Virus record (IMG/VR): IMGVR_UViG_2537562092_000003
From: a virus
Taxonomy: Duplodnaviria; Heunggongvirae; Uroviricota; Caudoviricetes
Length of the DNA stretch: 28,548 nucleotides
Reading direction: 5' to 3' (one strand)
Position numbers and translations under genes: made by a program. The notes beneath the pieces were generated by a model. The model was not told the DNA's origin. It searched no databases and was given only the letters and a program-made list of their open reading frames with translations. How positions within the stretch are numbered: the stretch's first letter is position 1; every line of letters starts with the position of its first letter. Below, in pieces: positions 13,844-14,024 of the stretch.

Positions 13844-13874
13844 TGTTATGAAAAAGTTCTTTTTTATCATAACA
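13844..13874. repeat. Inverted repeat TGTTATGA-N15-TCATAACA
   Basis: Read directly; sits about 65 bp upstream of the small ORF at 13938. Confidence 0.5.
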
Positions 13875-13937
13875 TTTCAATAAAAGCATTACAGATGCAA
13901 TCATCCCGTCATCATCAATTATTTAAGGTGGTTAAAC

Positions 13938-14024
13938 ATGGAAAATAACAAGTTTGCACATCTCGCTCCTTTTTTATCCGTAATCCTTTTCGCTTGTTGT
14001 TTTATATGGGCATTATTTTTATAA
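13938..14024 (+). CDS. Candidate small hydrophobic peptide (28 aa)
   Basis: MENNKFAHLAPFLSVILFACCFIWALFL with SD AAGGTGG 7 nt upstream; one predicted transmembrane helix. Below the track's length cutoff; hypothetical. Confidence 0.3.
   Translation: MENNKFAHLAPFLSVILFACCFIWALFL

Follow-up and report, generated by a model that had tools for sequence, protein, structure and literature searches.

The 28,548-nucleotide stretch of DNA analysed here, the IMG/VR virus record IMGVR_UViG_2537562092_000003 (Caudoviricetes; hereafter the window), holds a 28-codon open reading frame (ORF) at 13938-14024, in a gap without annotated genes. A sequence-only reading had picked out this ORF and likened its architecture, a short polar head followed by one predicted transmembrane helix, to that of type I toxins and small membrane regulators. 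We find that it is a real, conserved and never-annotated small gene, which is carried by the lambda-like prophages of about one fifth of Escherichia coli genomes. It lies at the 3' end of a compact mobile cassette, and in our judgement it is probably a small membrane-protein gene within an autonomous, moron-like unit. It is best called a new family within the known kind of prophage-borne small hydrophobic proteins and candidate type I toxins. The membrane-peptide architecture thus stands, now as that of a genuine small gene, while membership of the type I toxins is no more than possible: no known family is matched, and no lineage-conserved antisense RNA gene was found beside it.

Conservation of the reading frame

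Can a frame of only 28 codons be recognized as coding? To avoid circularity, copies were gathered by a pattern taken from the upstream AT-rich block alone, blind to the ORF itself, which returned 141 copies. The ORF is intact at 87 nt (28 codons) in 140 of these, and the single exception is interrupted by an IS1 element inserted in codon 17. The intact copies fall into 19 haplotypes encoding 15 peptide variants, and only the ORF frame, of the six possible, is open in all 19. The ratio of non-synonymous to synonymous variation (pN/pS), taken as the mean pairwise value per frame over the haplotypes, is 0.31 for the ORF frame, compared with 1.02 and 0.67 for the sense +2 and +3 frames and 1.40, 0.38 and 0.83 for antisense frames 1, 2 and 3; antisense frame 2 has its third positions in common with the ORF and is interrupted by stops. 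A minimum spanning tree of the haplotypes has 24 synonymous changes and 27 non-synonymous ones, compared with an expected synonymous share of 19% (binomial p = 7.7e-6), and the changes are distributed over codon positions 1, 2 and 3 as 8, 16 and 27. Replacements within the helix are conservative (V, I, L, A, F, C), several residues never change (M1, E2, N3, N4, H8, P11, L13, S14, W24, F27 and L28), and cysteine 21 is present in all variants, mostly as part of a Cys-Cys pair. These patterns indicate that the amino-acid sequence is under purifying selection. Conservation of the frame in homologous regions, which the sequence-only reading had proposed as a check, clearly favours the ORF.

The start of the gene and the composition of its product point in the same direction. 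The 20 nt upstream of the ATG, which include the Shine-Dalgarno sequence AAGGTGG, pair with the 3' tail of 16S rRNA at a predicted -10.2 kcal/mol, a strength that, counting both strands of the window, only 2.7% of 1028 ATGs reach, and relatives carry AAGGTGAG, AAAGTGAG or AAGGTAG in the same place. On the Kyte-Doolittle scale residues 1-5 average -2.5 and residues 9-28 average +2.5, in keeping with a short polar N-terminus (MENNK) and a hydrophobic segment of 20-23 residues that runs to the C-terminus. A ribosome site and a hydrophobicity of this level are combined in only two of the 262 ATG-initiated ORFs of 20-50 amino acids (aa) in the window. Both the well-spaced ribosome site and the head-plus-helix layout noted at first sight were therefore borne out, and with 28 aa the product falls among the small hydrophobic peptides (below about 60 aa) typical of type I toxins.

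Other frames of the gap fared differently. The earlier reading was right about its size, the figure of about 860 bp arising because a mechanically called DUF1971 frame begins at GTG 14522, but its statement that there is no larger ORF fails if taken literally: mechanical ORFs of 34-91 aa are present, and none of those tested is conserved. A 38-aa antisense frame (13919-14035) is open in four of the 19 haplotypes. A -1 frame from a GTG inside the ribosome site of relatives meets a stop in the window lineage and has a pN/pS of 0.67. An upstream ORF from ATG 13848 (13848-13883 in the window) has 11, 22, 27 or 32 codons depending on lineage, with unrelated sequences; its stop in the A and B lineages is a TAA overlapping the peptide gene's ribosome site. 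This ATG lies within the block and hairpin described below and, with an mRNA start near 13845, would have almost no leader. A 35-aa hydrophobic frame on the minus strand (14418-14311; MVVFGVTTCFSFGLCILCVRNKLLKFNQEISMHST), with GAGGAG about 14 nt upstream, measures 27, 32 or 35 aa among relatives and differs mostly by replacements; it is probably not a gene.

Within the ORF, T TTT TTA at 13970-13976, read in the zero frame over Pro11-Phe12-Leu13, has the form of a classical -1 slippery heptamer. It is nearly invariant over the haplotypes and the -1 frame is open downstream of it; that frame shows little conservation (pN/pS 0.67), and there is no evident stimulatory structure.

A mobile cassette beside the Q operon

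The sequence-only reading had the ORF sit alone, which is too simple a picture, as it forms the 3' end of a conserved mobile cassette that spans about 13805-14024. Its boundaries were traced in a spread sample of 60 rows from the 1175 genomes with a match, comprising 36 diverged rows and 24 near-identical ones that align past the ORF. The whole ORF is covered in 59 of the 60, the exception again being the copy with IS1 in codon 17. Diverged relatives have 76-82% identity, and their alignments begin 15-35 nt before the ATG or further upstream and end, in 35 of 36, at window position 14025, one base past the stop. Beyond that point the DNA is unrelated, and four unrelated right flanks were found.

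When 12 diverse copies were aligned and compared between lineages, the cassette resolved into two conserved islands, the block and the ORF, on either side of a divergent leader. The 44 nt of the AT-rich block (~13807-13850) are 86-98% identical and free of indels, the leader from the block to the ribosome site is 52-61% identical with many indels, and the ORF is 80-85% identical and in register without indels, although one pairwise run set two gap columns. The viral contigs L099 and L110 delimit the unit further, since the segment from block to stop is all that they have in common with the window: the block is retained in both despite unrelated left flanks, and their right flanks are unrelated as well. 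The conserved unit is thus block, leader and ORF, about 220 bp in total. About 65-85 nt to the left of the cassette L099 also has a perfect 20-bp palindrome, TATCACTTAAATAAGTGATA, with half-sites resembling those of a lambda operator.

On the left, 91 of 139 loci have DUF1367, 46 a rem-like gene and 2 something else; the rem-like gene heads a DUF968-RusA-Q operon, as in strain CFT073. Within 3 kb to the right of the same loci lie Hok (~89, ~64%), DUF1971 (28), IteS (15) or a P-loop NTPase (7). The cargo that follows the stop in different strains includes a hok locus, the IteS/IteA anti-phage pair, a P-loop NTPase, IS elements and the DUF1971/QueH island, and in strain W a hok locus together with an AAA ATPase and a DUF262 protein. 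The cassette is therefore the constant left edge of a variable cargo slot and is divergent from an operon that ends in Q. The slot to its right, up to the replication genes (L002, L003, L008, L009), is a hot spot for defence or toxin genes in Rac-like and other lambdoid prophages; its occupants are an AAA ATPase together with DUF262, IteS/IteA, hok, IS elements or a P-loop NTPase of ~815 aa.

Occurrence and annotation

Among 5426 complete E. coli genomes, megablast found relatives of the region in 1028 and blastn in 1175, and no record annotates a feature under the match, apart from an IS1 transposase inserted in the gap. Carriers include CFT073, strain W, SE11, Shigella flexneri and Escherichia ruysiae. 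The CFT073 copy (NZ_CP051263.1, 1346808-1346894, minus strand; peptide MENNKSAHYAPFLSVILFVLCCVWALFL) adjoins hokD. Outside Escherichia, the block pattern applied to 185,579 species representatives matched S. flexneri and E. ruysiae only, and peptide patterns that require a non-CCT proline codon matched no viral or metagenome contig. Two apparent plasmid matches were discarded as records of 4.8-4.9 Mb, that is, chromosomes. The family thus appears to be confined to Escherichia and Shigella.

Why has the gene gone unnoticed? The ORF is below the length limits of gene callers. The cassette is also absent from the Rac, Qin and DLP12 prophages of K-12, which carry related modules, and small-protein studies in K-12 could not see it for that reason. 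An exact look-up of eight peptide variants in a collection of 15 billion proteins returned none. Searches of Pfam, NCBIfam, PHROGs and PADLOC gave noise only, and PDB sequences gave nothing; the sole NCBIfam match, for one variant, was to a Borrelia lipoprotein family below threshold (E = 0.031; 14.4 bits against a cut-off of 35). Two lineage variants had no Pfam match and no credible match to Hok/Gef, Ldr, TisB, Ibs, ShoB, DinQ or ZorO. A full-text literature search for the peptide sequence found nothing, and the systematic type I toxin search of Fozo et al. (2010) makes no mention of it. A CFT073 ribosome-profiling (Ribo-seq) preprint of September 2026 describes 338 unannotated translated small ORFs and six novel small membrane proteins (bioRxiv 10.64898/2026.09.28.754932). 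The coordinates that its accessible part gives for two of these, SMP3 and SMP7, lie elsewhere in the CFT073 genome, and the ORF may have been detected earlier among the six.

Predicted control elements

The near-invariant block is also the candidate promoter region. The sigma-70-like site that lies wholly inside it, TTATTA-17-TACATT, is the top plus-strand match to a position weight matrix (PWM) in the window, at 8.0 bits, and recurs with the same score and position in all four lineages, with TAAATT as -10 in other lineages. An alternative -10, TATTAT (13809-13814), scores better in the A and B lineages and has no -35 in the window. From the first of these sites we infer a promoter with a transcription start near 13845, at the foot of a hairpin.

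This hairpin corresponds to the inverted repeat that had been noticed upstream of the ORF, whose arms TGTTATGA (13844-13851) and TCATAACA (13867-13874) are indeed present, 15 nt apart; a repeat search lengthens them to 19 nt each, with 84% complementarity. When 17 distinct versions are compared, 88.7% of the cells pair on the plus strand, a value that none of 500 shuffles reaches, while slid controls give 22-52%; the covariation score is 0.137, compared with 0.102 in shuffles (8 of 500). Pairing on the minus strand is lower (83.2%) because G-U pairs turn into A-C mismatches there. The difference mildly favours a structure in the ORF's own transcript, for example a 5'-terminal stabilising stem-loop. 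The inner stem depends on lineage, with AAAAG/CTTTT in some versions and ATCTG/CAGAT in others. Folds of the whole transcript do not stand out (z = -1.5 for the plus strand, -1.4 for the minus strand). Folding predicts that the ribosome site is sequestered, yet its pairing partners differ between lineages, so that the prediction does not count as evidence. Intrinsic terminators stand directly after the stop in the hok-linked and IteS-linked flanks.

An antisense RNA had not been recognized by eye, and the scans likewise gave no convincing one. Over 13500-14700 on both strands there is no terminator-like site, and promoter-like sites are no commoner than in shuffled sequence. The best minus-strand promoter candidate in the window, CTGTAA-17-TATGAT (13894-13866), lies in another place than in the three other lineages, whose minus-strand sites over the ORF start read TTTCCA-16 followed by TATGAT, CATAAT or AATAAT, or TTGTTT-17-TAACAT. 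The window has a candidate across its own ORF start (Table 1), which both promoter scans left unreported. A possible end point for an antisense or read-through transcript is a minus-strand hairpin in the block that carries a U-rich tail. Of 18 distinct versions, 17 preserve its 5-bp stem (as CGCUU/AAGCG, CGUUU/AAGUG, CGUUU/AAAUG or CACUU/AAGUG), and relatives L009 and L007 score terminator-like there. The hairpin is weak all the same, with 5 bp, no U-tail in L110 and no call by the scan in the window. Together with this hairpin, the promoter-like sites of the relatives would yield a leader-complementary RNA of ~110 nt. Both strands give shallow consensus folds, and Rfam has no match for the cassette at gathering or permissive thresholds. 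An antisense RNA for the peptide gene is thus a possibility for which the case is weak.

Relation to known small proteins and morons

The peptide resembles the type I toxins of the IbsA-E/Sib, ShoB/OhsC, LdrD/RdlD, TisB/IstR-1, ZorO/OrzO and Hok/Sok loci, which have 18-50 residues made up almost entirely of one hydrophobic helix, a long structured leader ahead of a strong ribosome site, and a small locus on mobile DNA; in most relatives the cassette even adjoins a locus of this type, hok. Ibs and ShoB have a hydrophobic C-terminal end, as has the peptide. TisB, Ldr, ZorO and Hok have a charged C-terminal tail, which the peptide does not, and there is neither sequence similarity to any of these families nor a demonstrated antisense or divergent small RNA.

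Comparable in setting are YnaM (Rac), YnfS (Qin) and YlcJ (DLP12) of K-12, which were found by ribosome profiling. They are likewise prophage-borne, have 29-49 residues with one predicted helix and were missed by ordinary gene callers, but they are not homologous to the peptide. MgrB, PmrR, MgtS, AcrZ, SgrT and KdpF offer another comparison as single-span peptides of ~30 residues, PmrR and KdpF having 29 aa each; a peptide of their kind would act by binding a larger membrane protein. The MgrB-type regulators belong to the core genome and are each linked to a partner gene or regulon, whereas the peptide is part of a mobile prophage cassette with variable neighbours, and no partner could be inferred from its genomic context.

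For the cassette as a whole, the comparison is with phage morons such as lambda bor and lom or HK97 gp15, which are autonomous transcription units placed between conserved genes of lambdoid phages. Like them it is present or absent between syntenic phage genes (here, in 1175 of 5426 E. coli genomes, with replication and cargo genes on one side and the Q operon on the other), deviates in GC content (30% against 50%), has its own promoter-like region and mosaic joints at the gene boundary, and is followed by a terminator in two flank types. It differs in being far smaller, in that its promoter is only predicted and in that the window copy has no terminator.

Weighing the explanations

The moron-type reading, which we consider probable, draws on the foreign composition, the promoter-like block, the terminators in some flanks, the joints at the gene end and the presence/absence pattern. 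Transcription would run rightward from a sigma-70-type promoter in the block, with TTATTA-17-TACATT as the best candidate. The mRNA would open with the stable stem-loop at 13844-13874, followed by a freely evolving leader of ~90 nt, and the strong Shine-Dalgarno sequence would drive translation of the 28 codons. The peptide, we infer, inserts into the inner membrane as a single-span helix with its N-terminus in the cytoplasm and has its activity there. Most likely the cassette benefits the lysogen or prophage, through exclusion, defence or addiction, rather than virion production, as its company at the edge of the Q operon is hok, relBE-type and defence cargo. Several points weigh against this account. 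The resources searched contain no homologue of known function, and promoter, transcript and peptide product are predictions from sequence. The promoter is only a moderate PWM match that a stricter consensus scan does not list, and its -10 is damaged in L099, where the A at position 2 is missing; in the window itself, the scan found no terminator downstream of the ORF. With 19-20 haplotypes that represent ~4 lineages, the selection test draws on few independent events, and its sample comes from one genus.

The peptide could instead be the toxin of a new type I locus, a membrane-damaging product held down by a cis-encoded antisense RNA of ~65-120 nt, which is possible but on balance unlikely. 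The layout would be like that of ldr/rdl, the antisense RNA starting in the leader or at the ORF start, running leftward through the hairpin and ending at the hairpin and U-tail in the block. Size, hydrophobicity and ribosome site fit the E. coli type I toxins, notably Ibs and ShoB; a long leader with a 5' hairpin and predicted pairing of the ribosome site, and a small self-contained mobile cassette amid toxin-antitoxin and defence cargo, with hok adjacent in ~64%, would suit such a locus too. Three lineages place minus-strand promoter-like sites over the ORF start, and the stem in the block persists in nearly all versions. Against these stand the displaced antisense promoter candidate of the window, the shuffle-level frequency of such sites and the frailty of the putative terminator; the large hairpin also pairs better on the ORF strand, and the partner of the ribosome site changes from lineage to lineage. 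There is, moreover, no match to Hok, Ldr, TisB, Ibs, another family or Rfam, and no tandem duplication at the locus. It is very unlikely that the conserved element acts as regulatory DNA or RNA with an incidental frame. The element might serve as an insulator or terminator that stops cargo transcription from entering the DUF1367-DUF1364-Q operon, or as part of that operon's divergent control region, and it does lie nearly always immediately upstream of, and divergent from, the operon's first gene, with TTTACA-16-TATACT in between; the block is better conserved than the ORF, and some synonymous sites of the ORF are invariant (CCT TTT TTA and the last 18 nt). What this leaves unexplained is the excess of third-position changes, the low pN/pS in one frame only, the lack of indels over 87 nt next to a leader full of them, the conserved ATG and ribosome site, and a break of homology exactly at the stop; L099 and L110, in addition, keep the cassette away from the Q operon. 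Least probable by far, and already contradicted, is a chance open frame in AT- and T-rich intergenic DNA. Such DNA is prone to hydrophobic frames, as T-rich sequence yields frames rich in Phe, Leu and Ile, and the gap does contain a second one at 14418-14311. That frame, taken as a control, varies in length and mostly by replacements, while the peptide ORF keeps its length in all copies but one and bears the marks of purifying selection.

Significance

A gene present in about one fifth of complete E. coli genomes has been missing from every annotation examined and from a collection of 15 billion proteins. Its cassette forms the conserved border of a hot spot in prophages where hok, IteS/IteA and other defence cargo are found, and as a compact, well-delimited unit of promoter-like block, 5' hairpin, leader and 28 codons it is easily tested. 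Should the peptide be toxic or exclude other phages, it would matter for prophage maintenance and for the fitness of lysogens in pathogenic E. coli. The finding is useful to research on small proteins, prophage cargo and type I systems, and its kind is not surprising. A bolder proposal, which we regard as doubtful, is that of a new membrane-acting addiction or defence module: a 28-residue toxin kept in check by an antisense RNA against its leader, which would at the same time be the fixed anchor of a cargo-exchange hot spot. The invariant 3' end and the block would then be the sequences at which toxin-antitoxin and anti-phage genes swap in beside the Q operon.

Prophage setting

The window is an E. 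coli prophage of the lambdoid, Rac-like type, and its 861 bases at 13660-14520 match the chromosome of strain DETEC-P829 at 100% identity. A full-length match to the RalA antitoxin RNA of the RalR/RalA type I system in Rfam (26814-26992, minus strand, 225 bits) agrees with this picture. The ORF lies between the DUF1367-DUF1364-Q operon and the DUF1971/QueH cargo island, where GC content is ~30% (13750-14350) as against 46-54% in the phage genes to the left (12250-13600).

Table 1 Features of the cassette and of its prophage neighbourhood (window coordinates)
Feature	Position	Strand	Remarks
Peptide gene, 28 codons	13938-14024	plus	ATG 13938, TAA 14022-14024; MENNKFAHLAPFLSVILFACCFIWALFL
Shine-Dalgarno AAGGTGG	13925-13931	plus	6 nt before ATG
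Near-invariant AT-rich block	13805-13850	plus	CACTTATTATTAAAAACGATTAGCTAAATTACATTTTAATGTTATG; left end of cassette, candidate promoter region
Sigma-70-like candidate	TTATTA 13811-13816, 17 nt, TACATT 13834-13839	plus	wholly inside block
Stem-loop (inverted repeat)	13844-13874 (31 nt)	plus	predicted 5' end of mRNA
Candidate hairpin with U-rich tail	13793-13822	minus	CGUUU 13822-13818, 8-nt loop, AAGUG 13809-13805, then UCGUAUUUCUAU
Candidate antisense promoter-like site	13918-13944	minus	TTTCCA, 15 nt, AATAAT; across ORF start
Lysis genes	left of cassette	minus	annotation
tRNA-Gly and tRNA-Thr	11726-11876	minus	annotated in identical strain DETEC-P829; between Q gene and lysis genes
Q-type antiterminator (DUF1133)	12229-12771	minus	annotation
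DUF1364	12768-13058	minus	annotation
DUF1367	13058-13657	minus	annotation
Gap without annotated genes	13658-14527		holds the 28-codon ORF
DUF1971	14528-14866	plus	annotation
QueH	15478-16146	minus	annotation
ydaV, ydaT, sieB, kilR	beyond QueH island		Rac-type replication and immunity genes

Directly upstream of the DUF1367-DUF1364-Q operon, between it and the cassette, lies the strong minus-strand sigma-70-like site TTTACA-16-TATACT (13743-13716), with 10 of 12 consensus matches and 11.7 bits. It is kept in relatives including CFT073, where it stands before a different first gene. A constitutive-looking promoter ahead of an operon for the late-gene antiterminator is not expected of a prophage.

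The cargo island to the right (14528-16146) combines a DUF1971 (TehB-like) protein with the epoxyqueuosine reductase QueH within the prophage, and in some relatives (L149) a Hok/Gef gene follows DUF1971 in place of QueH. Some relatives with the DUF1971-linked flank (comparison with L150 and L145) show a deletion polymorphism of ~57 bp, corresponding to window positions 14159-14216, which is bounded by the direct repeats ACCTGGGAA at 14155 and 14212.

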